The notes under the pieces: generated by a model
Told to the model about the DNA's origin: nothing
Database searches by the model: none
The model's input: only the letters and a program-made list of their open reading frames with translations
In this document: positions 26,909 to 51,774 of the stretch, in pieces
Numbering within the stretch: position 1 is the first letter of the stretch
Layout of the letters: the number at the start of each line of letters is the position of its first letter
Virus record (IMG/VR): IMGVR_UViG_3300035670_000197
Location: 318 to 64,317 of that record
Length of the DNA: 64,000 bases
Direction: 5' to 3' (one strand)
DNA from: a virus
Lineage: Duplodnaviria > Caudoviricetes
Made by a program: the position numbers and the translations under genes

Positions 26909-27180
26909 TGTTCTATCGTACAGGACTTTTCTGATGGCGTTCAGAGCCTGAAGGGGCTAAGTCATTGTACGAAACGGTCGAAATTATGAACGTTTACGAT
27001 TTTTGACTTTGGCCTGTGAGTCGGCTGCGCTTTATACGGGAGCCTTTCCAAATCGTTCCGGGCTTTTCGAGGGGACATTTTTACCTTTTCGTTTTCGCTG
27101 CTAGGGGTGGGGGGAGGGGGGGTCTTTTTGTTTCGAGGGGTCATCTTTTTTCTCTCTTCTCTCTGGGACATACGAGGCAG

Positions 27181-27600
27181 GGGGTGCATGTGTCTTACTT
27201 GTCATGTGTGAGGTCATGTCATGTCTTGTCAATGACTAGACAAGCAAGCAAGCAAGGCAGACATGTGTGCATGTTGTCTAGGTGGACTAGACAAGCAAGG
27301 CAGACATGTGTGCATGTGTGCAAGCAAGGCAGACATGTGTGCAAGCAAGGCAGGGGGGAGGGGGTAGGTGGGCTACAAGCAAGGCAGGGGGGAGGGGGGT
27401 CTCTCTTGTTGCAGGCTCTGGTTCTGAGGCTGGCTCTGACTCTGGCGACTACCTACCTAGAGGGGAGGGGGGTATGGGGGTCATCATGTGGGCTAGTGCA
27501 GACAGCCAGGCGTCTAGGCCCTGGCAGGTGCAAACAACTTAGGCACTAGACATGCAAGCACGACATGCAAGGCAGGGGGGAGCAAACCCAATGCAGGCAA
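27181..27600. repeat. Non-coding low-complexity region with CAAGCAAGGCAG direct repeats and G-runs
   Basis: Copies at 27249, 27292, 27321, 27342, 27376, partial 27567; many CATG/CTAG/TGCA. Confidence 0.85.
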
Positions 27601-27628
27601 GGGCTAGAAAGAAATCTGCCCTAGAGGC

Positions 27629-27657
27629 TTGCAATAGTGCAGGAAGGTTGCTAACCT
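27629..27657 (+). promoter_or_regulatory. Sigma-A-type promoter with TGCAGGAAGGT spacer motif (leaderless transcript)
   Basis: TTGCAA-17-TAACCT, ATG 7 nt downstream. Confidence 0.75.
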
Positions 27658-27664
27658 GCACCGC

Positions 27665-27886
27665 ATGTTCCAAGTGACCAACCCCAAGACAGGCAAGACC
27701 TACAAATACAGCACCGCACGCAAGGCAGACGCATACGCTCTCGCAGAGAGGCTAGGCGTGGAGGTGCAGGTAGTGCAGGCGACCTACCGCAAGACCTACG
27801 GCAAGACCTGCATCTGTGGGCGACCTGAGGACACGCACGAGTCCTACGACTGCTACAAGGACTACAAACTGCAAGGGGGGTGGTGA
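27665..27886 (+). CDS. Hypothetical early protein
   Basis: Downstream of promoter; CICG motif. Confidence 0.7.
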   Translation: MFQVTNPKTGKTYKYSTARKADAYALAERLGVEVQVVQATYRKTYGKTCICGRPEDTHESYDCYKDYKLQGGW

Positions 27887-27906
27887 CAAGAGACACACCG
27901 CATGAC

Positions 27907-27935
27907 TTGACAGACTGCAGGAAGGTCTGTAGTCT
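27907..27935 (+). promoter_or_regulatory. Sigma-A-type promoter with spacer motif
   Basis: TTGACA-gacTGCAGGAAGGTctg-TAGTCT. Confidence 0.8.
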
Positions 27936-27995
27936 TACTCAGGTAAGGCGAAAGCCAAGCACAACAAACACAACGACGAAGGGACACCGCAAGAC

Positions 27996-28238
27996 ATGAA
28001 GACTTACTCAGTAGCCATCACCGCAAAGGGAGTGACCTATCACTTCCATGTGGACACCATCAACAAGGTCAGGGAGTTGTTCGCTGGCTCATGTGACATC
28101 ACCGTATTCGATGTGTGGTCACAGACTGACCGCATCAACGAGCGACCCATCATCGAGCGTCTGACTGAGGCTCAGGTCAATGACATCATCTGGGGTCGCA
28201 CCGCACAGGTGCAAATCCTGCAGGGCGCAGTCGCCTAA
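27996..28238 (+). CDS. Hypothetical early protein
   Basis: AACGACGAAGGGAC leader; followed by hairpin 28256-28300. Confidence 0.7.
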   Translation: MKTYSVAITAKGVTYHFHVDTINKVRELFAGSCDITVFDVWSQTDRINERPIIERLTEAQVNDIIWGRTAQVQILQGAVA

Positions 28239-28330
28239 TCCGCACAGCACACAGTCTCCCCCTCTGGATGGTCACCCCCCGACTATCTGGAGGGGGTTCT
28301 ACTTTTTTCTGAGAAAGTTCACCGCAATAC

Positions 28331-28359
28331 TTGACAGAGTGCAGGAAGGTTGCTAATCT
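28331..28359 (+). promoter_or_regulatory. Sigma-A-type promoter with spacer motif
   Basis: TTGACA-gagTGCAGGAAGGTtgc-TAATCT. Confidence 0.8.
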
Positions 28360-28393
28360 TTCTACTGTCAGCAAACAACGACGAAAGGACATC

Positions 28394-28774
28394 ATGTCAA
28401 ACAAGTACCTAGCAGTCACGACTGAGGGAGTCATCTCAGTCATCACCGCAACGAACGAGGACAGCCTCAGCAAGTTGCAGGAGGCAGTAGGGGGCTGGGT
28501 TCAGGTTATTGACCTCAGCGACACCCTCAGCCTCTGGTGCAACGAGGAGGGCAAACTCATCAACCTTCCGCACAATCCTTACGCTCAGGTCATCTGGGAT
28601 GAGGTGTTCGGAGCACACACCGACTACATCGTGGGCGATGTTGTGTTCACAGGTGGCACAGACGACGAGGGCTACACGCTGGGCATCTCTGAGGAGCAGG
28701 AACAGCGAGTGCGTCAGGCAGTCGCAAAGGCTCAGCAGTTCGTGCTTCCACGAGTGGTCATCACGAGCAACTAA
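28394..28774 (+). CDS. DUF3846-family protein
   Basis: LQEAVGGWVQ...LWCNEEGKL..LPHNPYA...IVGDVVFTG; start after AACGACGAAAGGAC. Confidence 0.8.
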   Translation: MSNKYLAVTTEGVISVITATNEDSLSKLQEAVGGWVQVIDLSDTLSLWCNEEGKLINLPHNPYAQVIWDEVFGAHTDYIVGDVVFTGGTDDEGYTLGISEEQEQRVRQAVAKAQQFVLPRVVITSN

Positions 28775-28859
28775 TCAAAGTGCAGAAGACCCCTCACCCA
28801 ATGGGTGGGGGGTTCTTCTGTAGATACGCACAGGTAAAAAATACGAAAGGACACAAGAA

Positions 28860-29159: not shown

Positions 29160-29185
29160 AACTCTGACACACCCCTCTGCCATAC

Positions 29186-29244: not shown

Positions 29245-29502
29245 ATGGGCTGGAACCTACCCCCCGGAGTAACAGGCAACGAGTACGAAATCGCCGGGCC
29301 AGACAGAGAGTGGAGCGACACACGAGAGGTGTCATGCTCTAACGACGAGTGCACCGCATACGAGCAGGAAATCGAAGTAGATGTGGACATACAGTCCTAC
29401 CGAGGCGAGGCTTGGTTCTCATGGACATGCACCGCATGTGGTCACGAGGATGAAGTCACCTACGACCTAGACGACGAAAGAGATTACGACCCTTACGACT
29501 AA
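29245..29502 (+). CDS. Zn-ribbon-like acidic protein
   Basis: MGWNLPPGVTG...C..C...CTAC; leader motif upstream. Confidence 0.7.
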   Translation: MGWNLPPGVTGNEYEIAGPDREWSDTREVSCSNDECTAYEQEIEVDVDIQSYRGEAWFSWTCTACGHEDEVTYDLDDERDYDPYD

Positions 29503-29519: not shown

Positions 29520-29556
29520 CCCCCGAAGGTAAAAAATACCGACGGGGGCTTTTTCG
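29520..29556 (+). terminator. Intrinsic terminator between convergent genes
   Basis: CCCCG...CGGGGG followed by TTTTT. Confidence 0.6.
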
Positions 29557-29912: not shown

Positions 29913-30398
29913 CTAAGGCAGAACCTTGACTGTTGTCCTCTCAAATAGAGCCTCGATGACTGCTTGGTCGTTACATGTAACTGCCTCAATGCCTTTTTCT
30001 TTTTGGAAAGCACACAAAGCCGCACAAGTTCCATCACCAATGTCACCGCGCTTATCAGAACCTGCTTCATAGTGACCCAACTCAATGAGTCGAGTCTGAA
30101 CAGCAGCAACTGACGCAGAGTTTCGAGCGAGACTTCTGAAATCAACAGCAGACATGTAAACAACTACATCGTTTTTGAGGTTGGTCTTCACGGCTGCCAC
30201 ATTTTTTACCTTTTTGGCAGCAGGCTCTGGTTCAGCAACCACTTCTGGTTCTGGAGCCTGGATTTCCTCAACCGCAACAACTTCAGCGACTTCGAGTGCA
30301 CGTTCGTGGATGGTTCCATCCTGAACAAGCCCATCAGCATCGCCATCTACCGCATCTGCTTTGTATTCAGCATCACGCAGGTACTTTTCTTCACCCAT
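29913..30398 (-). CDS. Peptidoglycan-binding domain protein
   Basis: SVAAVQTRLIELGH...GDIGDGTCAALCAFQKEKGI. Confidence 0.65.
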   Translation of the reverse strand: MGEEKYLRDAEYKADAVDGDADGLVQDGTIHERALEVAEVVAVEEIQAPEPEVVAEPEPAAKKVKNVAAVKTNLKNDVVVYMSAVDFRSLARNSASVAAVQTRLIELGHYEAGSDKRGDIGDGTCAALCAFQKEKGIEAVTCNDQAVIEALFERTTVKVLP

Positions 30399-30405: not shown

Positions 30406-31110
30406 TCACTTTTCTGGGTACTGGGTTAGCCAATACGGTATGTCGCCAACCTTTCCTCCATTATACGCATTGGGTCCAACCCCCCATGCCCCGAAATCAG
30501 TACCTTTACTTGACATCTTGTAGGCAATACCCGCATTGACAAGCGGGTCGAACAAGTCTTCGTAACTGCTCAGGTTGTATCGCTCCATCCTGTCTTTACC
30601 GAGGTTCCCAATCATGTTGATTTGGAACAAACCGTAGGAGTTATCACCTGTATTGGAGTTCCCATTGTGAGCCACTGGTCTTCCTCTGGACTCACGCATA
30701 ACAATCGCCCAAGCCATCCGCAAAGATTCTCCCTCAAAACCAACATGGGCAAGAAGGTCACGCAAAACTTTTGGTTCGAGGACTTCTGCTTCGAGCGATG
30801 CAACAAGTTGTTGAGACTTCAGCGCAGCTGTTGGTTGTGTTGTCGAGGTGGTAGGGGCATTTTTTACCTTTTCCATCCTCAGCAGTTCCATCTCGTAGGT
30901 GTAGTGCTTCTTTTTCATGGAGTCTTCTAACTCCAAAGAGAAAACTTTCTCCTCCGCATACTTAGGTGTACTTGTCGTTGTTGTCGCTTCTTCCACTAGG
31001 TCACTTGCGTATGCGACTTTGACCACGAGGGTCACAAGGAGCAAGCCCATCACTCCTGCTACTAGTACTGCTCTATTTCTGGTTTTGTCCTTGGTTGGAT
31101 ACAAAAGCAT
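30406..31110 (-). CDS. Membrane-anchored lytic transglycosylase (lysozyme-like)
   Basis: AIVMRESRG...SYGLFQINM...DPLVNA; N-terminal TM segment. Confidence 0.85.
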   Translation of the reverse strand: MLLYPTKDKTRNRAVLVAGVMGLLLVTLVVKVAYASDLVEEATTTTSTPKYAEEKVFSLELEDSMKKKHYTYEMELLRMEKVKNAPTTSTTQPTAALKSQQLVASLEAEVLEPKVLRDLLAHVGFEGESLRMAWAIVMRESRGRPVAHNGNSNTGDNSYGLFQINMIGNLGKDRMERYNLSSYEDLFDPLVNAGIAYKMSSKGTDFGAWGVGPNAYNGGKVGDIPYWLTQYPEK

Positions 31111-31874: not shown

Positions 31875-31903
31875 AATCTACCTGACTTTTGCAGGAAAGT
31901 CAA
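31875..31903 (-). promoter_or_regulatory. Promoter with inverted spacer motif
   Basis: TTGACT-ttcctgcaaaagtcagg-TAGATT. Confidence 0.7.
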
Positions 31904-32281: not shown

Positions 32282-32300
32282 TTTTTACTTTTCCTTTCGT

Positions 32301-32486
32301 CTAGTTGGTTTCTTGGTTTCTCCGCATTTCAGCAGAAGATTTCAGTTCTCCAGAGCAGAACCTACAAACAACTTGATGTTCTGGCGTGGTTTGTCCAGAC
32401 CAGAACCTTGTTCCGCACTCTCGAATAACGAGGCACATGAACTCTTGGTCATTGAGGTCTATCTCTTGGTTTTTTACCTCACTCAC
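32301..32486 (-). CDS. Small Zn-ribbon protein
   Basis: C....ECG...CRFC. Confidence 0.55.
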   Translation of the reverse strand: MSEVKNQEIDLNDQEFMCLVIRECGTRFWSGQTTPEHQVVCRFCSGELKSSAEMRRNQETN

Positions 32487-32488: not shown

Positions 32489-32989
32489 TTACTCCTCAAC
32501 AGGTCTCTGAACCGCATGTTCTGCGATTTCATCTGCTGGTTGTCCCATGCTTGCGACCCAATCTTTGATGTGGTCGTCAGTTGGCATACCAACATGTCTA
32601 CCTTCCTTCCATGTGAAAGGCGTTGTCTGACCTTTCGGTAACACAAACAGGTGGTACTGATTTGCTGTGTCAATGAGTTGGTCGTCTGGTGGGAAGATTT
32701 CGATTGCTTCTCTGTCCAGACCTGCAAGTTCGTTCTTGATGCGTTGGAGATGTCTCCAGTCACGCACCGCACGACGCTTGTGGTCTCGGATGCTCAGATG
32801 GATTGCTCCATCTTCTTTACCTTCCAACAGATGTCGGTGCACGACATAGTGAGAGTTCACCCAGAGAGTTTCGTTCTCAACGAGTGCGTCTTCTCGCACA
32901 ACTCCATTTCGCATCGGCGTTGCCTCCGCAAAGCGAGTCCACTCTCTTGGTGGCGTTGCACCTCCTCGGTGCTTTCCCTTCTTAGCCAT
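32489..32989 (-). CDS. Hypothetical protein (HLSI...DWRHLQRIKNEL family)
   Basis: Conserved-looking phage motif ...AIEIFP...NQYHLF; ATG 32989. Confidence 0.7.
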   Translation of the reverse strand: MAKKGKHRGGATPPREWTRFAEATPMRNGVVREDALVENETLWVNSHYVVHRHLLEGKEDGAIHLSIRDHKRRAVRDWRHLQRIKNELAGLDREAIEIFPPDDQLIDTANQYHLFVLPKGQTTPFTWKEGRHVGMPTDDHIKDWVASMGQPADEIAEHAVQRPVEE

Positions 32990-33203: not shown

Positions 33204-33247
33204 TTGCTGTCCTTTCGTCGTTTCGGTGTAACTAACCTGACAAGTAC

Positions 33248-33276
33248 AGGATAGTAGACCTTCCTGCACTTGTCAA
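33248..33276 (-). promoter_or_regulatory. Promoter with spacer motif
   Basis: TTGACA-agTGCAGGAAGGTctac-TATCCT. Confidence 0.75.
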
Positions 33277-34473: not shown

Positions 34474-35046
34474 CTAGGACTCTTCTTTCTTCTGAACAAG
34501 AAGATGCACAGGCTCTGCTGAGTTCGAGTCAAAACGGCACGCAATCGAGACCGCACTCTTCACCATGTTCCTCGCTGAGGTCACGCTGCGTTTTTTACCT
34601 TCGAGGGTTGCTTGCAGCGCACCAAGCGCATAGCCAGCACCAGTTCCTGCTGCGTAGATGCCATCCGCATCTCGACACCAGTCGTAGTTCGAGCCAATGT
34701 CATAGATGACTCCATTGACAACGCAAATGATGTGCGAGTCGTGTTCTCCCTTTTCACCGTACTGAGCGTCATCAAAGCAGGACTTCAGAGCAGGTATGAA
34801 CTTCGAGGAGATAAACCTATCTAACCTGACGCCCTCATCCCGAGGGTTTGGTGGAGGTGGCTTCAGCACATGACCAAGCAAGTTGATTGCCCGCATATCC
34901 CCCGCTGCGCCAAGAAGGTAATCGCCATTTTTTACCACCTTGCCAGCATTAAATGGCAGCAAGTACACACGCTCATCATCAACGACTCTTGAGTCGAAAC
35001 CAACAACAGCCCAACCACTTCCCTGTACCGCAGCAATCGTGGTCAT
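34474..35046 (-). CDS. Ntn-hydrolase, proteasome beta/HslV-like peptidase
   Basis: MTTIAAV...VVGFDSRV...GKV...GAAG...AGTGAGYALGAL. Confidence 0.8.
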   Translation of the reverse strand: MTTIAAVQGSGWAVVGFDSRVVDDERVYLLPFNAGKVVKNGDYLLGAAGDMRAINLLGHVLKPPPPNPRDEGVRLDRFISSKFIPALKSCFDDAQYGEKGEHDSHIICVVNGVIYDIGSNYDWCRDADGIYAAGTGAGYALGALQATLEGKKRSVTSARNMVKSAVSIACRFDSNSAEPVHLLVQKKEES

Positions 35047-35113
35047 CTCAGCTCACCTCCTCCCTAAGTTGTTTGCATCTCCAGCAGCCGCAGCTGCCGC
35101 ATCAACGAAATTT

Positions 35114-35365
35114 TTACTTTTCTCCGTAGGAGTCCCAAAGCACATCACGAAGTTGTTCTTCATACTCCGCTGCTGGTGTGGAGTTCGAGATGTCCTCTTC
35201 CTCAATCAGGCTGTCAAGCGAAAGAACAGCCGTGCACCCTTCCTCTTGGAACATGATGACCAACTTGGTCTTTCCATCATTTGGGTCATCAACAATCGAG
35301 GCGACATACGGCGCAGACCCGAGGTTTTCATGCAGAACTCTGTCCACGATGCTTAGGTTTTCCAT
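35114..35365 (-). CDS. Hypothetical protein
   Basis: ORF track. Confidence 0.6.
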   Translation of the reverse strand: MENLSIVDRVLHENLGSAPYVASIVDDPNDGKTKLVIMFQEEGCTAVLSLDSLIEEEDISNSTPAAEYEEQLRDVLWDSYGEK

Positions 35366-35553
35366 GCCTCAACTTTACAATGGCCTGTCCGCATCGTTTG
35401 GGAGGCGACACGACTTCCCTCCCCCTCAGGGAGTAGGAGGAGAGAAGCGGTGGCGATAGCGAACCACCTCATCGTTGGGTGGCGAGTGAACTCAAGCCAG
35501 CCCCAACGGTAGTTCTAGGATAGAACAGCCGAAGGGGGGTGATTTTTACCTAT

Positions 35554-35775
35554 TTAGTCCTCTACAAGACCTATTTCATGGGAAACCTTCTCCAAGTCCC
35601 AGCCGTAATACTCCTGCATCCAGACCTGAGCCAGCCGTATCGCAAACTGCTCGTCATCTTCTTCGGGGAGCCTGAGTTTCTCATCCAGAACCACCGTGGT
35701 CATCAGGCTGAAGTACTCGCCCACGAACATCACGGTCTTTGACAAGGAGATGTCGTCAATCGCTTCAGCCGACAT
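35554..35775 (-). CDS. Hypothetical acidic protein
   Basis: ORF track. Confidence 0.6.
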   Translation of the reverse strand: MSAEAIDDISLSKTVMFVGEYFSLMTTVVLDEKLRLPEEDDEQFAIRLAQVWMQEYYGWDLEKVSHEIGLVED

Positions 35776-35953
35776 TTTTACCTACGACCTCCCACCTGTC
35801 TTCACCTTCGATAAGACCGAGCGATGAACCCGAGTCCCATTTGACATGCACCGTGCCCATGTCATCAACAAGAGTCACCGTGCCCTCCTCTCCGTACTTC
35901 AGTCGTGTGTACGGGTCGCTCGTTGATACGAGCCGAACTCTCTGTCCTTTCAT
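35765..35953 (-). CDS. DUF4314-family protein
   Basis: GQRVRLV..DPY..L..GEEGTV..VDDMGTVHVKWDSGSSLGLI..ED. Confidence 0.85.
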   Translation of the reverse strand: MKGQRVRLVSTSDPYTRLKYGEEGTVTLVDDMGTVHVKWDSGSSLGLIEGEDRWEVVGKNVG

Positions 35954-36195: not shown

Positions 36196-36431
36196 TTGTC
36201 CTTCATCCTTTCGTCGTTTTACTTGGACAAGTCCATCGTACTACTTCTCTGCACTTCAGTCAAGTCTTTCCGTAGATTTCTTTTTTCGTGTGTCCGCACG
36301 AAATCATCAAAACCTGCACCAGGTCGAAACAACTTTCTTACCTCTGACCAGCCATTGACCGAACTGAACGACTTGACCATAAAAATAAGAAAGCCCCCCA
36401 CCCTTCCGAATGAGGAGCTTTTTTCTTCGTT

Positions 36432-36746
36432 CTATTTCTTTTTTGATTTTTTACTTTTGTAAGTTTTTCTGATGCCTGATTTTTCGGCTTTCAGTTTCCC
36501 AATCTGCTTTCGCAAGACTTCTATGTGTTCCTGAAGAACTCCAATCTCAAAGTCAATACCTTCTTGCAATAAAAGAAATCCTTTTTCTCCAAGAATACCG
36601 CGCTCATACTTTCGCCTCATGGCTCGGTAGTTTTCGCAGTCTAGGCAATACCTATCTTTGCCTCGAACATAACCCCATCGGTTGTGGCCTCGCTGACAAT
36701 GGTCAGTTCCTCGTATTCTTTTCACCTTTGTAGAGACTTCTAACAT
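36432..36746 (-). CDS. Hypothetical protein with CQRGH...CLDC Zn motif
   Basis: ORF track. Confidence 0.6.
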   Translation of the reverse strand: MLEVSTKVKRIRGTDHCQRGHNRWGYVRGKDRYCLDCENYRAMRRKYERGILGEKGFLLLQEGIDFEIGVLQEHIEVLRKQIGKLKAEKSGIRKTYKSKKSKKK

Positions 36747-36748
36747 TT

Positions 36749-36949
36749 TTACTCGTCAATGTTTTCTGGAGTCTCATACTCGAACTCGCCACTTCCCTTG
36801 ATATTCTGCTCGAACTTCGGCAAGTCGGTCATTTTCATTTCGCCATTTTTCACTTTTTCCAGTAGTTCGACGGCGTGCTCTTCAGAGTCTGCCTCTAGCC
36901 ACAGTTTTCCGTATTCGCCTGTCGAATACCAAACCTCAAAGGTTGCCAT
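36749..36949 (-). CDS. Hypothetical protein
   Basis: ATG 36949 after AGGAAA. Confidence 0.6.
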   Translation of the reverse strand: MATFEVWYSTGEYGKLWLEADSEEHAVELLEKVKNGEMKMTDLPKFEQNIKGSGEFEYETPENIDE

Positions 36950-37035
36950 TTTTACTTTCCTATCATTTCGTCGTTCTGATTTTTTACACCAAGAAACCCC
37001 CCACCCCTGAGGGGTGAGGGGCTTCTCTCGGTGGA

Positions 37036-37843: not shown

Positions 37844-37846
37844 TTT

Positions 37847-38083
37847 TTACTTCCCTTCGTTCGAGTGGGCGAGCGCACCGGGTCCATTACCTTCGTCATC
37901 CTGCATCGGGATGATGTACGAACCATCGGTGAAGAAGATGACGAAAGGAACTTCCGAGCCTTCGTACCAGCCGAACTGCTCAACTTCTTCTCTCTTCATC
38001 GGTCGAACTAACTCAACAGTTTTACCCACGAGCCAGCCGTACTCTTTCTTGATGTAGTTCTCAGTCTGAGTCAAGGTTGTCAT
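37847..38083 (-). CDS. Hypothetical protein (DDEGNGPGAL motif)
   Basis: ORF track; recurrent phage motif. Confidence 0.7.
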   Translation of the reverse strand: MTTLTQTENYIKKEYGWLVGKTVELVRPMKREEVEQFGWYEGSEVPFVIFFTDGSYIIPMQDDEGNGPGALAHSNEGK

Positions 38084-38551: not shown

Positions 38552-39049
38552 TTAGAAATGAAAGTCCACGACGACGAGGTACTGCATCTCAGGTGCGATA
38601 GCAAGCCTCTCACGGAACGCCTTCAGATTTGGTGTGCCGTATTCGAGGTCGTACACACCTGACTCAGGAGTCCACGAGTCTTGGAGGTTCTTCGCCAACT
38701 TGTAGAGATAGTAAGTTTTCATCTCTTTGTAGTCGAGCGGTGCTTCGGGGTCGTATGCATCTAACTTCTCTGCGAGGTCGAAATCTTTTACCTCTTCGAG
38801 GCAACGCTTCATTTCGTTGATGCGACCATCAACCCACTCTTTGATTTTCTCTTCAGCGAGTTTCTCGTTCTCGGTGTAACGCAAACAGTTCTTGCCACTA
38901 CCAAACAGGTTTTCCCAACGCCCACCAATTTCGTGCCAATCAGACCACTCTGGGTAGGGAGTTTCTGAGTGCGTGACTTGACTCCTCACCTTGTCAATCG
39001 CCTCTTCGTGGCTCTCTGCTTCTACGAGCAAGATGTGTGCCGTATGCAT
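38552..39049 (-). CDS. Hypothetical protein (WSDWHEIGGRW...VVVDFHF)
   Basis: Leader motif; promoter 39088-39116. Confidence 0.75.
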   Translation of the reverse strand: MHTAHILLVEAESHEEAIDKVRSQVTHSETPYPEWSDWHEIGGRWENLFGSGKNCLRYTENEKLAEEKIKEWVDGRINEMKRCLEEVKDFDLAEKLDAYDPEAPLDYKEMKTYYLYKLAKNLQDSWTPESGVYDLEYGTPNLKAFRERLAIAPEMQYLVVVDFHF

Positions 39050-39096
39050 TTGTCGTTTGTCCTTTCGTCGTTTTTACTTCTCCGTTCATCATACCT

Positions 39097-39561
39097 TCAG
39101 AGTGCAGGTAAGTCAAGCAACCCTTCTTCGATTTGATGAGCGTTTGCGATTTCCTCCGCAAGCCAAACCTTCGCTGAGTTGAGTGCTTCCACGATGTCGT
39201 GCGACACCGCATCGAGATGCTCGCCTCGAACATAGAGGTCGAACCACGGGTTCAGAGTCCAATCAAGTTCCTCGCCAGAGATGCTCGCATCCGTGTAACC
39301 AGCAGCGATGAGTTCGGAGCCGTATGAGTAACGAGCTTCATTTTTACCTCGCACCGACATCTCGCCGTCGCAGTAGATGTCCACTTGGAAACCGTCTTTC
39401 GATACCGTGCAAATCCACGAACCGCTTGGGTCTTTGTAGAAAGCAGCGTCTTGTTGCGTGATAGGGAGAGGCAAGCCCGTTGCCCACTCAACCTTGTAAT
39501 CATCAAGCCCGTACATCTGCTCGAACAACTCAGCCAACGGTGTTGGTGAGACTCTTCTCAT
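39097..39561 (-). CDS. Hypothetical protein
   Basis: Strong RBS AAAGGAGG. Confidence 0.65.
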   Translation of the reverse strand: MRRVSPTPLAELFEQMYGLDDYKVEWATGLPLPITQQDAAFYKDPSGSWICTVSKDGFQVDIYCDGEMSVRGKNEARYSYGSELIAAGYTDASISGEELDWTLNPWFDLYVRGEHLDAVSHDIVEALNSAKVWLAEEIANAHQIEEGLLDLPAL

Positions 39562-39682
39562 TTTTACCTCCTTTCGATTTGGGATTTGGGGAGGCTCCCT
39601 GCCGTGTCTGACCGAGAGCCTCCCCGACCACCTCCGAGTTGGGACATGCGATGGAAGGGTCGCATCTCAGAGGTGGAAACTT

Positions 39683-43750: not shown

Positions 43751-43871
43751 GTGGATGTCCTTTCGTCGTTTTGACCTGCTCTATTGAGCATTGAGTTCAT
43801 CGTAGCACCTTCCTGTACTAGATGCAACACGAAACACGAAAAAATCCAAAAAAGTTTTTGGAGGAGGAAAG

Positions 43872-43943
43872 TAGCCCTAGAGGGACTCGAACCCTCGCTT
43901 CCTGCGTGAGAGGCAGGTGTCCTAACCCCTAGACGATAGGGCC
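43872..43943 (-). tRNA. tRNA-Glu(CTC), CCA not encoded
   Basis: GGCCCTA...CCTGC-CT-CTC-AC-GCAGG...GGTTCGAGTCC...TAGGGCT-A cloverleaf. Confidence 0.92.
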
Positions 43944-43994: not shown

Positions 43995-44043
43995 CTGGGA
44001 GAAAACGACGAAGAAAACTCCCAGAGGTCATAAAAGTCGTTTT

Positions 44044-44340
44044 TTACTTTGTATCGTCAGACGATACAGGCTCAAGCGATGCTGGGTCAACTCCGTAGTC
44101 GATGAGCTTCTGCTTGATGAGTTCGTTATCTGCGTCTTCTTCGTAACTCTCTGTCAAGAGTCGAGCGACAACAGGTCGTGCGTAGTCACCAACTTGGTCG
44201 ATGATTTCCCAGTCGAGTTCACTCCAATGAGTTGTTTCCATCACGGTGAGACCAGCAGCATCTCCGTAACTTCCATCCGCAGCGAAATACGAGATTGTCC
44301 TCGTGTTCTCGACTTCAGTAATACCGTTCTCTTCGGTCAT
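44044..44340 (-). CDS. Hypothetical protein (YFAADGSYG motif)
   Basis: ORF track. Confidence 0.7.
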   Translation of the reverse strand: MTEENGITEVENTRTISYFAADGSYGDAAGLTVMETTHWSELDWEIIDQVGDYARPVVARLLTESYEEDADNELIKQKLIDYGVDPASLEPVSSDDTK

Positions 44341-44448
44341 TTTTACCTCTCTCGTTTTTGGGGCTTGCCGTTTATTTTACCGCGTGTCTTTACCACGCCG
44401 TGCGAGTGCGTGGGACAGGTGCTCGCCCATCCCACGCCTCGCCGTCGA

Positions 44449-45218: not shown

Positions 45219-45434
45219 TTACTCGTCTTTGTCAAGTCCCTCGTAGAAATCTTTTGCTCGTTGGATGTATTCCTCACCCAGCAGTTTGAGAAGTTCCTCT
45301 TCCGCATAGTTCGGAAGTTCGTCTCCATTCTCAGAGACATAAGAGTCGAACCACGCATTTGCGAGGTCTTCCTTCTTCTGTTCCCAAGCCTTGTTCTGTT
45401 CTGCTTCAGGGAGGGTTGCAAAGAACTGCATCAT
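45219..45434 (-). CDS. Hypothetical acidic protein
   Basis: ORF track. Confidence 0.6.
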   Translation of the reverse strand: MMQFFATLPEAEQNKAWEQKKEDLANAWFDSYVSENGDELPNYAEEELLKLLGEEYIQRAKDFYEGLDKDE

Positions 45435-45436
45435 TT

Positions 45437-45592
45437 TTACTTCACCTCGAAATCCCAGCGAGCGCCGACTTCGTAGTTCTCGAAGTCGTCGGCAATCCAG
45501 TCATCTAGTTTCTGGATGGCTTCCATCTCGTTGTTCGCTTCGACATCAACTTCATAGTGCTTAGTGAGAGTTGCTTCTACTTTGTATTTCAT
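45437..45592 (-). CDS. Small acidic protein (51 aa, not in ORF track)
   Basis: MKYKVEATLTKHYEVDVEANNEMEAI... Confidence 0.6.
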   Translation of the reverse strand: MKYKVEATLTKHYEVDVEANNEMEAIQKLDDWIADDFENYEVGARWDFEVK

Positions 45593-45810
45593 ACCAGCGA
45601 TACCTCCCACGCTTGGAAGTCGAAGTCACTCGCATAGCGTGCTGAGTCTGACCACGCAGTTTCGCCCCAGAAATACTTTGGCTTCTTGCCAGAGGGGATT
45701 ACTCGTCGGAACGCAGAGTCAATGTCTGCTTCCTGAACTACAACCTTTTCACTTGAGTAGAGAGTGAGCCACTCTTTGACTTCACTCACCTTGGGTTTGG
45801 TGTCTCTCAT
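45589..45810 (-). CDS. Hypothetical protein
   Basis: ATG 45810 after AAGGA. Confidence 0.65.
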   Translation of the reverse strand: MRDTKPKVSEVKEWLTLYSSEKVVVQEADIDSAFRRVIPSGKKPKYFWGETAWSDSARYASDFDFQAWEVSLV

Positions 45811-45941: not shown

Positions 45942-46337
45942 TTAGTTGTCAACCCCAGCGAGCAACTTTTCTTTTGTGATGCTGTCGTGCTCAATGATGG
46001 CTGTCGGCGGAATGTCTCCCAGGTGCACCCAGGCACTTCCAAAAAACATTGGGTTGTGGTCAGTCGAGACTTCGAGGTTTTTACTTTCGAGTTCGGAAGT
46101 GTCAACAACCCAGATGTCGATTCTGTCGTGATGAGCCAACTCGATGCCAACGGGGGACTCAGGGTTGGGGTGGGTGTGGTCGAGAAGTCGGAACCACATG
46201 AAGCCCAATGCTTCCTCGACAGACGGAGATAGAAACACCGCACCGAAGTTCGCTTTGAGCCCCTGCTCCGAGATGCTTTCGTAGACGCACTCGGGAGAAA
46301 CGTGATACAGAAGTTCTGGAATCTTTTCGTCGTTCAT
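45942..46337 (-). CDS. ADP-ribosyltransferase-fold protein (Tpt1/DUF952-like)
   Basis: LLYHVSP...ISEQGL...VFLS...IWVVD...GDIPPTAI. Confidence 0.6.
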   Translation of the reverse strand: MNDEKIPELLYHVSPECVYESISEQGLKANFGAVFLSPSVEEALGFMWFRLLDHTHPNPESPVGIELAHHDRIDIWVVDTSELESKNLEVSTDHNPMFFGSAWVHLGDIPPTAIIEHDSITKEKLLAGVDN

Positions 46338-46355
46338 GTCATTATCCTAAACTTT

Positions 46356-46541
46356 TTACTTTTCGGCGTCAAGTTCTCTTTCGAGCGCATTGCGTTCGCG
46401 GTCGTGCCTGCTTCTGTCGCGGTTTGTTCTTCGGTCCTCGAACGTGGCGGCTTTGAAATTTAGGGACGACAAGTCACCAGCCACACCTTTGGTGAGTCTG
46501 CGTATCCGTTCGCGTTCTTTTTTACGCTCTTGCCCGTTCAT
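46356..46541 (-). CDS. Small basic protein
   Basis: ORF track. Confidence 0.5.
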   Translation of the reverse strand: MNGQERKKERERIRRLTKGVAGDLSSLNFKAATFEDRRTNRDRSRHDRERNALERELDAEK

Positions 46542-46809: not shown

Positions 46810-46936
46810 TTTTTACTTCGTCCTTTCGTCGCGGCAAGCACGCCGCTCAAAAAATAATAAGACATAAACCTGAAAATACAAAACGGCACCACCCGTGTTG
46901 GGTGATGCCGCCTTGCCGTGAGGAAGTTGTTTTGTT

Positions 46937-47977: not shown

Positions 47978-48400
47978 TTAAGCGGGCCAAACGTACTCAA
48001 GATTGTCGGGTACCTCGGGGAAGAACGGTCTGTAGTACTCGGGTAACTTGCGGACCAAGTTTGACTGATGGCTGAGGTGGAACTGCGAGCTCCCCAGCCA
48101 AGCTGGTTTACTCAAGTTGTTCGAATCTCTATATAGCTCGACCAGCTTCTCGAACCTTTCGAGCATCGTGTCTTTGTATCCGCGACGAATCCACTCTCGT
48201 GTTACGACCAAGCCGTACACAGCGAGTTGATATTCGTAACCGTCCCACATCCGAGCCGCTGGGTGGTTAACCCAGCCTTTGGTCTCGCCGTTCAGTGCTC
48301 GCAGCAACTGGTATGTCTCAACCCGTTGTTTCCCGAGCCGCTTGTAGTCGAGTACCTCTGCTGACCGTTGGTAGTCCTCGAATGGTAAAAACGTTTGCAT
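47978..48400 (-). CDS. Pyrimidine-dimer DNA glycosylase-like protein (MSMEG_6728/DenV family)
   Basis: MQTFLP...LDYKRLGKQRVE...HPAARMW...SHQSNLVRK...YVWP. Confidence 0.85.
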   Translation of the reverse strand: MQTFLPFEDYQRSAEVLDYKRLGKQRVETYQLLRALNGETKGWVNHPAARMWDGYEYQLAVYGLVVTREWIRRGYKDTMLERFEKLVELYRDSNNLSKPAWLGSSQFHLSHQSNLVRKLPEYYRPFFPEVPDNLEYVWPA

Positions 48401-48419
48401 TGTCCCTCCGTCTTTTATA

Positions 48420-49270
48420 TCTAGTCCGTTCACGCTAGCCACATCGGCGCTCGCCGTCAATACCCCTCGCCGCAACTGTGAATGTAAGCGAACGGTTACA
48501 TTTGGCGGGCCGCCATCCGTCAAGTTGTTTGAATGTTGCGGTCTTCAGCAGCTGCCAGGAACCAAGCCGTTATCACATCCGATAACAACTGGGCGGGACT
48601 TTATTATTTTTTACCTATTTTTTACCTCGCAGCGGTCGAGCCGCCAGAATCCGACGTAGCTGCGCGGGTAACTTCCAAACAACTCAGGCCGCCAAACCTT
48701 AAGGGCCCTTCGGTCCCTTCGGTCCATTGGGTCCGTTCAGGCCGCTAGCTTGCGGCGGGCCGCAAAATAAAAGTTGTTTATATCTTGACGCAGCGGCAAG
48801 AGCTTGCCGTTACGCGGGCCGCCCAGATATAAACAAGTTGTTGCTATGTTCCAGGTTAAGAGCTCGCCGCCACCGCCACCACCGCCACCACTTCCACCGT
48901 TAGTACCAGCAACAGCAGCAACAGCTACCGCGCCGCCATCCGAAAAGTTGTTTGGAAGTAATTTGGAAAACCAAGCTAAATTTCCAAAATTCATCTAGCA
49001 GGGGTTTTGCACTCGGAAATCGCGGGCCGCCAGCTGCCGACATCGCAACAACTCCGAACAACCCCGAAGGGGCGTCGCGGCGGGCCGTTTCAGTTATTTC
49101 AGTTATAAGTGCAACACCTAGCCGCTGGTGCAACACCGTTCAGACTTAGAATTAAGGTTGTACAAAGAGTTCTATGATGGCAAGCCGCCAGGAGCTCCAG
49201 GCAATATGCAACTTCCAAATAACTTGAACACGCAGCAGCTGCAGCTTAAGTTACCCGTCAGTAACTAGGA
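48420..49270. repeat. Non-coding region dense in GCGGGCCGC and AGTTGTT/AACAACT words and hairpins
   Basis: GCGGGCCGC at 48505, 48755, 48814, 49022; 12-bp inverted repeat 48774/48825. Confidence 0.75.
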
Positions 49271-49277
49271 TTTCATT

Positions 49278-49463
49278 ATGGTTCTTGCACATCAGGTAGG
49301 AAGTGACCCGTTTGGGTTCCACGAGTTAGTGCTCATTACCCTCGCCGTTGGTTGGACTGGGTTGATGGCGGTTGGGCTGTATACACGCCGCTATTACAAA
49401 GTTGTTAGGTTATTTGCCTTAAGAGCTCGCCGCTCAATCAAGCGGTTCAAGAAAGTGCGCTGA
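49278..49463 (+). CDS. Small membrane protein
   Basis: One TM helix; AGGA RBS. Confidence 0.45.
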   Translation: MVLAHQVGSDPFGFHELVLITLAVGWTGLMAVGLYTRRYYKVVRLFALRARRSIKRFKKVR

Positions 49464-49631
49464 GATATACCCAATCCACAGATACACCAGTGCTTTGCCC
49501 TGCGGTTTCGAGCCGACCGTCCTCAGGATTCGGGTGATGGTGGGAACCCGTTTAGTTGTTAACGCGACAATCTCGTAGGCGCATCCAATGAGTAGCACCG
49601 TGTTCAGAGCTTTCTGGGTGCTCTCTTTCAT
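49434..49631 (-). CDS. Small membrane protein
   Basis: YEIVAL....VPTITR...HF pattern. Confidence 0.55.
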   Translation of the reverse strand: MKESTQKALNTVLLIGCAYEIVALTTKRVPTITRILRTVGSKPQGKALVYLWIGYISAHFLEPLD

Positions 49632-49756
49632 TACACACCTCTACAGTTGATGTCCGTTCCACATTCAGGGCAGCGGTCATGGTCGTCTTGTAGCTCGTAA
49701 ACCGCGCCGCACCAGAAACAATCAACTTGTTCGCTCTTGCCGCCGTCGTCCGACAT
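49631..49756 (-). CDS. Small Zn-ribbon protein (not in ORF track)
   Basis: CFWCG...CPECG. Confidence 0.5.
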   Translation of the reverse strand: MSDDGGKSEQVDCFWCGAVYELQDDHDRCPECGTDINCRGV

Positions 49757-49763
49757 TTTTTAC

Positions 49764-49925
49764 CTACTGGCTGACCATCTGTCCAGCGCAGCCTTGGGTA
49801 CTGCATTGCAGGCCGCCCTTCGAGAGGGACAAGTTCTTCTTAGTCATCAAGGCCCCGCAGAACTTGCATGGCTTCTGCTCTTCCTTTGGAACCTTACGGT
49901 TTGGGTTTACACCTGGTGTTGTCAT
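49764..49925 (-). CDS. Small Cys protein (not in ORF track)
   Basis: CKFCG...CSTQGC. Confidence 0.45.
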   Translation of the reverse strand: MTTPGVNPNRKVPKEEQKPCKFCGALMTKKNLSLSKGGLQCSTQGCAGQMVSQ

Positions 49926-49959
49926 GGTTTTATTTTACTCCCACTTGACAACTTGTTAA

Positions 49960-50142
49960 TTACTGACTACGCTGTAAAACAGCGTTGTCAGTTATTAACT
50001 TAAGCAGGTTAGCGGCTTCATTTGCGCGAGCCGTTACTCGGATGTGTTCATCGCGGGTTCTCGACAACGGGATATCTTCAGCAAGGCGGGCCGCCAGCTC
50101 TGTCGCGGCAGCAATAACTTCTTCATTAAACATCGAGCTCAT
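49960..50142 (-). CDS. Hypothetical protein
   Basis: ORF track. Confidence 0.5.
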   Translation of the reverse strand: MSSMFNEEVIAAATELAARLAEDIPLSRTRDEHIRVTARANEAANLLKLITDNAVLQRSQ

Positions 50143-51151
50143 CGGCGTCGAATCCTTCCGTCCGTTCTACCTCGCCGTCGTCGGAAGGTAAAATTTTGTC
50201 CGCAGCGGGCCGCGCTGCGTCTAAGTTGTTTGAATCTTGAGCCTGGGACGTCCGTACTGGAGCTTCCTCCTCGGAGTCCATAACAACTTCGGCATCAGTG
50301 ATATCCGTATCAGCTGGTAGAACTTCAATGATTCGAGATGCTCCTTGAGCGAGCCGTGCCAGTCTTTCCTGCACAATTTGTGCGGGGCTTCGCGTATCCG
50401 TTACCTGAACATCGAGTCCGATGTCCATGCCGCCGCGAACTCCTGCGCGGTCAAGGATTTCGGCGCTCGCCTTAAGACGAACGGGTTCAGAGATGGCTGA
50501 CTCCATAAGTTCTTCGAGAACGTCCACCGCGTAAGGTGCAGATTGCATTAACTTCCTGCGGGCCCGCTCTACATCTTCGCCAGGTTTGCGTTGGGTTCGG
50601 AGGTGGACGCGGCACAAGCCGTCATCCTTAATCCGTCCTGAAGACCAGAGTTGGCAGCGGATTCCGTCAGACTTGATGATTCTGCAGCGATGTGGCAGCG
50701 CGAGGGGAGCTCGCCGTGGATTGCTGGGGCCGCCATTTTCCTGCTCTTTTAAATAAGCGCGTGTTGAAGCGACCACCCACGGTGGGGAGATGTTGCAAGC
50801 CGCTTCGTCAACGATGAGGTCGAGGCCCGTCAAGTACTCAGAGTTTTTGTCATCTGGGTCCGACAGCAGCGGGCGCTTTTCGTGGAGGCTGAGGATTCTC
50901 CGTTCCTTCATAGCCTCGGGGGAGCGTGCCGCGATGAGACCCGTTGGTTTTCCCTGCTGGTCGTAGACCGCATCCCAGTTGAACTTGTTTGCTCGCAGAA
51001 CCTGACGGTTTTCGAATGTGTCCTCGACAATGCCGCGTTCGTGTTCTTGCAGGCCGAGCGACGAAAGGTCAGGTCGGAAATCTATTGGGGTTTCAACAAT
51101 GGGTTCGGTGGACTCTTCGTCCGCTGGCCCGTCGAAAGGTACGAGACTCAA
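50126..51151 (-). CDS. Terminase small subunit-like protein
   Basis: C....SDG.RC...CRVH, then ARRKL...AVDVLEELM...VRLKASAEILDRAG helical motif typical of TerS-like proteins. Confidence 0.55.
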   Translation of the reverse strand: MSLVPFDGPADEESTEPIVETPIDFRPDLSSLGLQEHERGIVEDTFENRQVLRANKFNWDAVYDQQGKPTGLIAARSPEAMKERRILSLHEKRPLLSDPDDKNSEYLTGLDLIVDEAACNISPPWVVASTRAYLKEQENGGPSNPRRAPLALPHRCRIIKSDGIRCQLWSSGRIKDDGLCRVHLRTQRKPGEDVERARRKLMQSAPYAVDVLEELMESAISEPVRLKASAEILDRAGVRGGMDIGLDVQVTDTRSPAQIVQERLARLAQGASRIIEVLPADTDITDAEVVMDSEEEAPVRTSQAQDSNNLDAARPAADKILPSDDGEVERTEGFDADELDV

Positions 51152-51239
51152 ATTTTACCTCCGCTCAAGAAGCGGTGGGCGGGACCCGTAGACAACTACA
51201 GGAAGGGGGAACAGAACACGGGCCCCGCCGCACCAAATT

Positions 51240-51557
51240 TTACTTCTTGGCTGGAGCCTTCTTGGCTGGGGCCTTCTTTGCGGTTGCCTTCTTGGCAGGA
51301 GCCGCAACCTCGATAACGATGGTGTCGGGGTGAGTTGACTCGTCAACAAGTGATGGGCCGGGGTTCGGGCCGAAGTTGGCGGAGGCAAGGGAGGTCACGA
51401 GGGACAGGGCCGCCGCGAACAGGGCTGTCGAAAGGGACATACCCCAGTCGAATTCGTGGATACCCATGGCCTCTGTTCCCATGAGGGCAACGAGGGCTTG
51501 GGCAAAAGTCTTGACGGCTCGCTCGCCTGCGGCCTTCCAGAAATTGATGTCGTACAT
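51240..51557 (-). CDS. Holin (r1t-type) with PAKK tail
   Basis: FWKAAGERAVKTFAQAL...LSLVTSLAS...GPSL. Confidence 0.85.
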   Translation of the reverse strand: MYDINFWKAAGERAVKTFAQALVALMGTEAMGIHEFDWGMSLSTALFAAALSLVTSLASANFGPNPGPSLVDESTHPDTIVIEVAAPAKKATAKKAPAKKAPAKK

Positions 51558-51774
51558 GTGTGTCTTCGCTCCTTAGTTGAGGTTCGATTTTTTACCTCAG
51601 TACACCAAGTTACGGCACTGGGGCTCGGACGAATTTTTGGAAAAATTGAGAGATATACGTCCCCTTTTCATAAACAACGGTTCGCCTCGGTTGCATTTTC
51701 CCTCGTGAAATAAGGGTTTTGGAAAAAGTGCAGGGTTGTACGACAGGGAGAAAAAATGAACAGAAAAAGTGCTT

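Follow-up and report, generated by a model that had tools for sequence, protein, structure and literature searches.

The stretch analysed here, called the window throughout, consists of 64,000 nucleotides (nt; bases 318-64317) of a 64,317-base virus record (IMG/VR IMGVR_UViG_3300035670_000197, Caudoviricetes). Our subject is the heptamer GTAAAAA, which recurs with strict polarity in one of the four gene blocks of this DNA. The structural block lies on the minus strand at 1-26 kb and encodes the major head protein, the portal, the head-tail adaptor and the major tail protein (PHROGs). A short plus-strand block follows at 27.6-29.5 kb. The minus strand then carries an arm of about 50 small genes (29.5-52 kb), and from 54 kb a right arm on the plus strand encodes an amidase and a class II ribonucleotide reductase. 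Among the products of the small-gene arm are a VWA/CoxE-like protein, an AAA+ (MoxR-like) ATPase, a dual-specificity phosphatase, a lysozyme-like protein and a holin-like protein; over half of its genes have no known family. A preliminary description of this DNA called the arm the early region, which is an assumption: holin-like and lysozyme-like genes also lie at its far end. Our gene maps come from a simple codon-usage caller of our own, which is crude for short genes and uncertain about starts, and the counts that depend on it are approximate. Only one relative in the phage collection has a name, Actinomycetia phage DSL-LC01 (72.5% identity across 604 bases), for which its published description predicts an Actinomycetia host and a lysogenic life style. 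The hosts of this phage family are uncultured and are probably freshwater Actinomycetia.

Abundance and polarity of the word

GTAAAAA occurs 36 times on the two strands of the window, against 7.54 copies expected from 100 dinucleotide shuffles (standard deviation 2.83, maximum 20). Twenty-nine copies lie on the minus strand within 27078-51595, and two on the plus strand within the plus-strand block (28834 and 29529). Outside 27078-51595 there are only four copies (2424, 4110 and 58030 on the minus strand, 53379 on the plus strand), and the structural and right arms of the window hold five copies altogether. Written as TTTTTAC, the word is the third commonest 7-mer of the record, with 32 copies versus 4 of its complement. 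The coding strand of the small-gene arm has 28 copies where an order-3 Markov model predicts 3.48. Orientation in the arm is 28 sense to 1 antisense. The sole antisense copy (48385-48391, plus strand), within the coding sequence (CDS) 47978-48400 of the other strand, was overlooked in the preliminary description, whose 31 coordinates (29 minus, 2 plus) are all exact. The dispersed polar signal proposed there, confined to the small-gene arm, is borne out by the counts and the polarity, and it extends to related phages; the inequality of the strands and the rarity of the word in structural genes, where CDSs are not enriched, are likewise as described. The enrichment of GTAAAAA is real, strong and conserved across the phage family.

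Alignment of the 29 minus-strand copies yields the consensus A(25/29)-R(27/29)-GTAAAAA-W(26/29); the next base is never A, and nothing is conserved farther out. The extended form ARGTAAAAAW is found 24 times against 0.51 expected, and all 24 copies fall within 27077-51597, in the orientation of the local genes. The 21 sequences one mismatch away from the heptamer have no more than 5 copies apiece on the coding strand of the arm, compared with 28 exact ones, so that each is at least five-fold rarer. The heptamer is all-or-none in the arm. A longer repeat or a mobile element was considered and dropped: a repeat search and position tables reveal no conservation past -3 to +8 in the window, or past -9 to +6 in the relatives of flank type III described below. 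The first genes of the minus-strand arm (51775-53709; GC about 44%, overlaps of 4-23 nt) contain no copy at all, the word starting only at 51589.

Orientation also bears on two functions suggested earlier. The word flips with the 2-kb plus-strand block and is tied to one transcription class, not to the genome ends, which speaks against a Chi-like or DNA-translocation site. An antitermination tag is unlikely given 20-30 copies per arm with no fixed relation to hairpins.

Placement relative to genes

Copies lie on the minus strand unless stated otherwise and are named by their lowest coordinate once introduced. Ten of the 28 window copies abut the start of an open reading frame (ORF) of at least 40 codons, compared with 0.87-1.2 expected at random positions, and the start codon is ATG in all ten. 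Seven of these are simple junctions: 32282-32288 adjoins ATG 32281 (70 amino acids, aa), the equivalent junction having the word in the relatives G008 and G007; 35775-35781, preceded by TAG and kept in G008, adjoins ATG 35775 (73 aa); 36949-36955 adjoins ATG 36949 (66 aa); 39561-39567, with GGAGG close upstream, adjoins ATG 39561 (154 aa); 44340-44346 adjoins ATG 44340 (98 aa); 46810-46816, 4 nt past CGACGAAAGGA, adjoins ATG 46809 (69 aa); and 49757-49763, directly past the TAG stop of 49764-49925, adjoins ATG 49756 (41 codons). The remaining three are true stop/start junctions, G-TAA-AAATG: 36746-36752 ends 36749-36949 and adjoins ATG 36746 (104 codons), 37844-37850 ends 37847-38083 and adjoins ATG 37843 (74 codons), and 45434-45440 ends 45437-45610 and adjoins ATG 45434 (71 aa). 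The genes starting at 36746, 36949, 37843, 45434 and 46809 have no orthologue in ten relatives. A G cluster is present 3-12 nt upstream in nine of the ten start-abutting copies, giving the layout Shine-Dalgarno (SD) sequence, TAAAAA spacer, ATG. Another copy, 27078-27084, adjoins an ATG followed by just 38 codons, within a 75-codon ORF that was not called (26962-27189). The one-mismatch variant GTAAAAT (51152-51158) adjoins the TTG at 51151 of a 341-aa gene.

The internal TAA serves as the stop of the upstream gene at six copies. Three are the stop/start junctions above. The others are 35111-35117, which ends 35114-35365 and lies 64 nt before ATG 35046, at a junction that has the word in G008 and in five type III genomes; 44041-44047, which ends 44044-44340, 13 nt past the -10 box of a predicted promoter (44090-44061); and 46353-46359, which ends the ORF 46356-46541 within the 17-nt spacer of a predicted promoter (TTGACG...TAGGAT, 46372-46344), 15 nt before ATG 46337. 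The copy at 44041 is upstream of a tRNA-Glu gene (CTC anticodon; 43871-43943, minus strand), which lies within the arm flanked by this copy and a promoter cassette.

Five copies are found 15-31 nt before a start, upstream of the SD sequence. Besides 46353, these are 28834-28840 on the plus strand, about 15 nt past a hairpin (28790-28819) and followed by ACGAAAGGA and GTG 28860 of a 99-codon ORF; 36981-36987, about 10 nt past a terminator-like hairpin (37015-36996) and 31 nt before ATG 36949; 39071-39077, 10 nt past the -10 box of a predicted promoter (39116-39088) and followed by the leader CGACGAAAGGAC and ATG 39049; and 51589-51595, 31 nt before ATG 51557 (105 aa) with AAGGAG in between. In all, about five window copies besides the start-abutting class lie within 35 nt upstream of a start. 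Three copies are just past a stop: 49757, already mentioned; 32471-32477, 11 nt past the stop of 32489-32989 or else at codons 4-6 of a possible 61-codon ORF (GTG 32486); and 35543-35549, intergenic, 4 nt past the stop of 35554-35775 (TAA-a-TAG-GTAAAAA). On the plus strand, 29529-29535 lies 26 nt past the stop of 29245-29502 in the loop of a convergent hairpin, and is kept in G008. Two copies 11 nt apart, at 48608 and 48619 (48608-48625), occur in a 1.36-kb stretch without a confident gene.

Eight copies are within CDSs: 30203-30209 in 29913-30398 (GTA AAA AAT); 30861-30867 in 30406-31110 (lysozyme-like, SLT domain); 34592-34598 (GGT AAA AAA) and 34929-34935 (GTA AAA AAT), both in 34474-35046; 36448-36454 in the lysine-rich C-terminal end of the ORF 36432-36746; 39341-39347 in 39097-39561; 46078-46084 in 45942-46337; and 46519-46525, at codons 6-8 of the possible ORF 46356-46541, or else intergenic. 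Sense CDSs are nevertheless depleted of the word, 8 of 28 copies being fully inside one versus 20.7 expected (P = 6e-7), and the depletion is seen in five genomes. The division into stop/start junctions, mid-CDS copies and intergenic copies had been made correctly in the preliminary description, as the gene context of each site confirms; it had noticed the stop/start junctions and underweighted the translation starts, which about one copy would abut by chance.

Codon usage does not account for the copies in CDSs. The confident CDSs of the arm hold 8 sense copies (one of them in a doubtful 37-codon ORF), compared with 2.60 expected after synonymous shuffling, where none of 1000 shuffles reached 8, and with 0.70 after shuffling of codon order. 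With the codon-preserving control, structural CDSs have 1 copy versus 1.79 expected and right-arm CDSs 0 versus 0.81. The excess is real but modest (7-8 versus 2.6; a Poisson estimate for 7 gives P of about 0.02), and part of it may be descent, since 34592 and 34929 are common only to the closest genomes: 34592 is present in G008 and G007 and not in the type III or IV orthologues, and 34929 is present in G008 only, G017 having V-K-N in other codons. In general, only close genomes have such CDS copies in common, and no preservation at synonymous positions is seen from one flank type to another, so that this kind of conservation, one of the checks proposed for the word, fails beyond close relatives. 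Slippery-site frameshifting (A AAA AAT) was also considered and dropped, the alternative frames being short.

Promoters, leaders and hairpins

The arm has promoters of its own. Fourteen good sigma-70-like sites were identified on its minus strand between 32 and 52 kb, and a repeated promoter cassette, TTGAC(A/T)-N3-TGCAGGAAGG-N4-TAnnnT, is found at 27638, 27916, 28340 and 29195 on the plus strand and at 33268, 33957, 38526, 43817 and 47522 on the minus strand, with a weaker copy at 36253. A form with the spacer reversed, seen as TGCAGGAAAGTCAAG, is found at 31890, 34240, 39103 and 43262. The cassette spacer holds, in either orientation, an 8-10-nt word TGCAGGAA(GG) that resembles an operator embedded in a dozen promoters. 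At two predicted minus-strand promoters (46372-46337 and 49959-49925) the -10 box ends 6 nt before ATG (TAGGAT-aatgac-ATG and TAAAAT-aaaacc-ATG), a leaderless-type layout.

Promoter-proximal genes are preceded, 4-9 nt before their starts and usually downstream of cassette promoters, by a conserved leader, AAACGACGAAAGGAC. It occurs at 28379 and 29227 on the plus strand and at 33220, 33919, 36216, 38495, 39070, 43223, 43768, 46831 and 47485 on the minus strand, with weaker copies besides. The GAAAGGA within it looks like an extended SD sequence. The leader is common to the relatives, including the two genomes, G021 and G019, that are virtually free of the word. By our own reading of the site lists, intergenic regions mostly carry either a promoter with the leader or GTAAAAA, and rarely both.

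Upstream of the word itself there is no -35 box and no TGn, the 29, 29 and 117 aligned sites of flank types I, II and III holding no information beyond the flank. A sigma-70 promoter was therefore rejected as a general reading of the word, the real promoter cassettes being a separate repeat. A terminator, an antisense terminator and a hairpin-loop signal were rejected as well, the folding energy of the 40 nt upstream and downstream of the copies being that of random positions in nine regions. Copies in hairpin loops are few (29529 in the window, 36667 in G007 and 98742 in G015), and an Rfam scan matched only the tRNA.

Conservation in related phages

A search of IMG/VR with the major capsid protein gave 345 matched stretches, of which 334 were confirmed and the best 80 kept. 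Thirteen relatives' records held the syntenic arm, and the core is present in 10 of them. Eleven arms were counted, G013 being nearly identical to G024 and DSL-LC01 having been examined by pattern search only. Nine of the eleven have a dense polar core, with 219 sense and 23 antisense copies in total: 28/1 (sense/antisense) in the window, 29/2 in G008, 29/6 in G007, 16/1 in G031, 24/3 in G015, 22/3 in G017, 21/3 in G012, 23/3 in G016 and 27/1 in G024. Confinement to the arm is equally marked in G008, where 29 sense copies in 19.5 kb compare with 12 on both strands of the remaining 98.7 kb. G007 and G008 also have plus-strand copies beside their plus-strand blocks. Across the nine regions 44 of the 219 copies abut an ATG exactly (offset 0 or -1), compared with about 6.7 expected; the fraction in G008 is 8 of 29. 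Collagen-like Gly-X-Y repeats (GGTCCTACAGGT-type words) dominate the k-mer statistics of the larger relatives when whole records are taken (G003, G007 and G015).

The core is fixed and its 5' flank is not. Type I (A-R) is found at 24 sites in the window and 23 in G008, and type II (GGG) at 19 sites in G007 and 13 in G031. Type III, (t)AGCAAAAA, characterizes G015, G017, G012, G016 and the pair G013/G024, with AAAAA at 13-16 sites in each of five genomes; 76 of 117 sites carry AAAAAGTAAAAA, in a form 15-16 bp long. Two further genomes, G021 and G019 (type IV), have the same gene order and a similar base composition and only 2 copies of GTAAAAA each. Instead, G021 (71.5-85 kb) and G019 have about 20 copies each of cCTGATATAATAGTACc, an extended -10 element (TGnTATAAT), on the coding strand, nearly one per gene and followed by the leader AAACGACGAAAGGAC. 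In DSL-LC01 the word has 4 copies in 32.6 kb, all of them away from the annotated small genes (1-26,000 of the locus), and it is not enriched in L001 and L002, whose VWA proteins are 49% identical. G003, the closest by capsid, was set aside as an example of a word-free relative: its contig lacks this arm and is uninformative.

Orthologous junctions allow the versions to be compared directly. At the start of the 341-aa gene an exact GTAAAAA is found, at the start or within about 11 nt upstream, in G008, G007, G015, G017, G012 and G024, which represent all three flank types; the window has the one-mismatch GGTAAAAT-TTG, and type IV has TACAAT-N6-ATG (TACAAT-tgaact-ATG). The word is also kept before the 190-aa gene, at a distance of 17-64 nt, in the window, in G008 and in five genomes of type III. 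Both junctions show the flank of the genome in which they lie, so that the flank evolves in concert within a genome. Such concerted flanks point to a co-evolving reader or to homogenization by recombination. At the VWA gene, G031 and G016 have the word in the 5' untranslated region (UTR), downstream of a clear TTGACA/-10 promoter, which makes a promoter role of the word unnecessary at this gene; the remaining relatives have an SD sequence and another A-rich spacer, without the word, at this site.

Orphan genes of the arm, defined by the lack of an orthologue in ten relatives, have the word at the start or within about 31 nt upstream in 6 of 14 cases, compared with 7 of 36 for the other genes (odds ratio 3.1, Fisher p = 0.15). 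The orphan genes at 36432-36949 form an insertion relative to G008, bounded by the copies 36981/36949 and 36448; G008 has a single copy there.

A possible junction signal in messenger RNA

In the window and G008, roughly one copy in three is the initiation or re-initiation region of a promoter-distal gene, as follows from their layout of G cluster, TAAAAA spacer and ATG, with TAA often serving as the stop of the preceding gene. Promoter-proximal genes use the leader AAACGACGAAAGGAC instead. Our preferred reading, to which we assign a probability of about 0.4, is that GTAAAAA is an mRNA-level junction signal of early operons, acting both as a translation-initiation spacer and as the site of a putative specific factor. 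The core would act in cis, being read on sense transcripts from the small-gene ('early') operons, and would also be the recognition site of a sequence-specific trans-acting factor. Such a factor is suggested by the all-or-none heptamer, by the lineage-specific 5' flanks and by the many copies away from starts. Sharp specificity, genome-specific flanks, strict polarity and restriction to one gene class all argue for sequence-specific recognition over a generic A-rich effect. The factor could act on RNA as a translational repressor occluding the AUG region or, alternatively, as an endonuclease cutting early messages at ribosome-binding regions. It would then switch a whole gene class together, as RegA and RegB/S1 of phage T4 do.

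A broader formulation is offered tentatively. The word may be a regulon signal with a fixed GTAAAAA core and at least three lineage-specific 5' extensions (A-R, GGG and tAGCAAAAA). Its co-evolving factor, unlike RegA, RegB, sigma factors and known phage repressors, would read the sense strand or the mRNA and set translation, decay or elongation at 20-30 sites. Our literature searches on the word in phages and on DSL-LC01 showed no description of such a signal.

Several observations weigh against a junction signal acting on mRNA. Start-abutting copies number just 3 of 29 and 2 of 16 in the two type II genomes, those of type III have no SD sequence in the normal range, and about half of all copies (106 of 219) are away from starts and stops alike under loose criteria. 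Outside the abutting class the distances to the next start look random, and short leaders are not enriched. Three copies in promoter spacers (46353 in the window; 9233 and 18454 in G017) and two just past -10 boxes would also suit a DNA operator, and the two window copies that follow strong terminator-like hairpins, ahead of genes for which no other promoter is visible (28834 and 36981), would suit a promoter. Nor is there a sign of selection for RNA accessibility: the motif is predicted to be 68-81% unpaired, exceeding shuffled flanks in only one of nine regions (p < 0.05).

The search for the reader gave no lead either. In five relatives no homologue of RegA (PF01818) or, at E<=0.1, of RegB (PF10715) was found, in searches that had no positive control. 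Candidate readers were taken as proteins present in the motif-bearing genomes and absent from type IV, together with the product of 38552-39049, which is absent from G008 and G015 too; the profile is weak, its negative set being two genomes (G021 and G019). The comparison with type IV singled out six to nine small proteins. Of the nine candidates inspected, eight are acidic (isoelectric points 4.1-6.0) and the ninth (8.9) looks hydrophobic. A Pfam and PHROGs scan of nine proteins, 38552-39049 not being among them, revealed no nucleic-acid-binding family, and the ESM Atlas provided no usable lead for two of them.

Alternative explanations

The alternative that survives best, unlikely as we consider it, is a polar DNA operator of the stoperator kind. 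A monomeric phage protein bound to the duplex word would block initiation or elongation in an orientation-dependent manner, serving as an immunity repressor or in early shut-off. An asymmetric word with 20-29 copies per arm, an orientation tied to transcription and a preference for non-coding gaps has the traits of stoperators. Some are located within promoter spacers or immediately past a -10 box, although promoter copies are, by our own estimate, about as many as random intergenic placement would give. The 15-16 bp of the type III form is a normal protein footprint, and the flanks switch together within genomes. This explanation would account for the accumulation at stops and starts by noting that, in a packed genome, these are the only places where a fixed word of 7-16 bp costs no protein sequence; lack of space alone, however, leaves the exact 0/-1 offset to ATG (44 of 219) unexplained. 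The word is moreover confined to one arm, whereas stoperators are genome-wide. As to life style, a small serine recombinase is present in four of five relatives and the published description of DSL-LC01 calls that phage lysogenic; against this, no match to a tyrosine integrase (PF00589) was found in the five relatives, the nine candidate proteins, acidic or hydrophobic, include no repressor candidate, and the arm of DSL-LC01 itself is without the word. The preliminary description had put forward a stoperator analogy as well as an RNA tag; either may hold, the observations being compatible with action at the DNA level and at the RNA level.

Rather more doubtful is a promoter or start-site element independent of a -35 box, used by a host RNA polymerase that a putative phage factor redirects, or by an unrecognised phage polymerase. 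RNA would start at the 3' edge of the word, the copies abutting ATG would yield leaderless messages, and the others would yield messages with a leader. Leaderless mRNAs are common in Actinobacteria, and dispersed polar intergenic words in one phage arm are most often promoters. The copies 28834 and 36981, behind their hairpins, would supply the promoter that is otherwise missing before the next gene. The type IV arms, which have about 20 extended -10 promoters and no enrichment of GTAAAAA, also fit, as does the 341-aa gene, with TACAAT-N6-ATG in type IV and the word abutting ATG in type III; G012 even has TTGACT 17 nt upstream of TAAAAA at this gene. In G007 and the window the start codon of this gene is TTG, a poor one for a leaderless message. 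Nothing upstream of the flank is conserved in any type, so that there is neither a -35 box nor TGn, and the word is unable to supply TAnnnT at -12 to -7 for an abutting ATG. Taking TAAAAA as a -10 box with a leaderless start (ATG or GTG) 6-8 nt downstream, an arrangement we tried and rejected, fits only 2 of the 29 minus-strand copies (34592 and 46810). The word also occurs within the 5' UTRs of genes with strong promoters, in an arm that already has 14 good sigma-70-like ones, and short leaders are not enriched beyond the abutting class. No Sigma70_r2 domain (PF04542) and no T7-type RNA polymerase (PF00940; a search without positive control) was matched in the five relatives, though divergent factors could escape both searches.

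It is improbable that GTAAAAA is a linker kept by recombination, that is, the shared boundary of small gene cassettes, spread and homogenized within each genome, promoting the shuffling of accessory genes and having only a secondary role in expression. Such a linker would be compatible with the other readings, and genome-specific flanks at orthologous junctions fit the concerted evolution it implies. The higher frequency of the word upstream of orphan genes and the orphan insertion bounded by copies also fit, but the association is not significant, and similarity breakpoints match gene ends anyway. A 7-nt core is very short for homologous exchange, and the strict exclusion of the word from the structural and right arms is left unexplained.

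Least probable is the absence of any dedicated signal, the word being a by-product of lysine codons, A-rich spacers between SD sequence and start, and TAA stops among short genes: an SD sequence with an A-rich spacer is indeed the general initiation layout of the family even without the exact word, 2.6 of the 8 copies in CDSs remain after synonymous shuffling, and no conservation of those copies at synonymous positions is seen between flank types, but this explanation is contradicted by the scarcity of one-mismatch neighbours (at most 5 versus 28), by the count of the 10-mer (24 versus 0.51), by the core in 10 of 13 relatives' records with 219 sense versus 23 antisense copies, and by the absence of the word from type IV despite the same genes and a similar base composition.

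Other features of the window and its relatives

The stretch 48401-49763, which has no confident gene, is rich in AACAACTT/AAGTTGTT and in GGCGGCCCGC-like words, and CAAACAACTT..GGATGGCGGC occurs twice in it. GGCCCGC, with 9 copies in the arm against 0.56 expected, is dense there. The stretch is possibly an origin or a regulatory hub. Between the structural and plus-strand blocks, 27100-27600 holds a cluster of direct repeats (GACTAGACAAGCAAGCAAGG... and CAAGCAAGGCAGGGGGGAGGGGG). A 2598-aa ORF among the structural genes (14356-22152, minus strand) shows, at residues 1188-1355, an exonuclease domain of the DEDD/RNase T type and matches no other family; the adjoining 1682-aa protein has portal-like or minor-head-like PHROG matches. 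The small serine recombinase of the relatives (resolvase/invertase size, 223-233 aa) is encoded at 68653-69096 in G007, 119305-119748 in G015, 1895-2338 in G017 and 118047-118247 in G008; none was found in G021.

Comparison with known systems

The start-associated sequences (SAS) of Cluster K mycobacteriophages are described as repeats of one orientation that accompany gene starts and occur only in the non-structural arm (Pope et al. 2011, PMC3203893). A 2025 survey reports 119 of 125 copies outside ORFs and describes their function as still open (PMC12699233), 14 years on. GTAAAAA resembles SAS as a short asymmetric repeat of one orientation in the non-structural arm, upstream of starts and sometimes holding the preceding stop. 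It shares their strong preference for ATG (10 of 10 start-abutting copies here). Conservation of SAS across subclusters before unrelated genes, at about 10-20 copies per genome, is a further likeness. In contrast, the 13-bp SAS consensus GGGATAGGAGCCC has no match in the window at up to 2 mismatches. Virtually all SAS copies are 3-7 bp upstream of the start, whereas here 10 of 28 abut it and about a quarter lie in CDSs. No partner inverted repeat of the kind of the extended SAS (ESAS) was found for the word, and here the flank varies by lineage around a fixed 7-nt core.

Cluster A stoperators are described as more than 20 asymmetric sites in short intergenic spaces and promoters, with an orientation tied to transcription (PMC9283540). 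As with these sites of L5 gp71-type repressors, the word is asymmetric, its orientation follows transcription, and it has intergenic and promoter placements. Stoperators, however, are 13-mers found genome-wide in temperate phages and bound by a known repressor, whereas here a 7-nt core (10-16 nt with its flank) is limited to a single arm, one copy in five abuts a start exactly, and no repressor or tyrosine integrase was found (no search was aimed at a homologue of the L5 repressor). Judged by sequence and layout, GTAAAAA is not a member of either SAS or stoperators.

RNA-level signals of phage T4 provide another comparison. Strong RegB/S1 sites are given as an 11-nt single-stranded GGAGRAYARAA in early intergenic initiation regions, some being in coding sequence, and RegA operators as overlapping or preceding AUG, with a 5' poly(A) tract and no structure, in about 30 mRNAs (PMC1702504; PMC3014915). 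Both are signals of one temporal class, and their layout of G cluster, A-run and AUG resembles that of types I and II. Types I and II read (A/G)GG-TAAAAA-W, whereas type III is without GGA. RegA operators overlap or precede AUG; of the word, only 44 of 219 copies directly precede ATG. The T4 sites are degenerate while the heptamer is all-or-none, and neither a RegA nor a RegB homologue was found in the five relatives searched.

Phage-specific promoters without a -35 box are also known, for instance the T4 late promoter TATAAATA. They too are short, A/T-rich, polar words present in tens of copies in one gene class, but they lie upstream of the RNA start and the ribosome-binding site, whereas GTAAAAA reaches the ATG in a fifth of its copies and lies in 5' UTRs.

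SAS and stoperators are known from cultured mycobacteriophages; GTAAAAA is a case from metagenomic ones. A practical benefit of the word is that it marks real starts and operon structure in an arm where over half of the genes have no known family, and it separates promoter-distal genes from promoter-proximal genes with the leader AAACGACGAAAGGAC. A factor that turned out to be a nuclease or RNA-binding repressor recognising 7-13 nt would represent a new specificity class and a possible tool. At least three flank versions, together with word-free relatives that have the same genes, constitute a natural series for finding the reader by co-variation. GTAAAAA thus belongs to a known kind, the dispersed one-orientation regulatory words of phage non-structural arms, and what is new in it is the fixed core, the three flank versions and the motif-free relatives.

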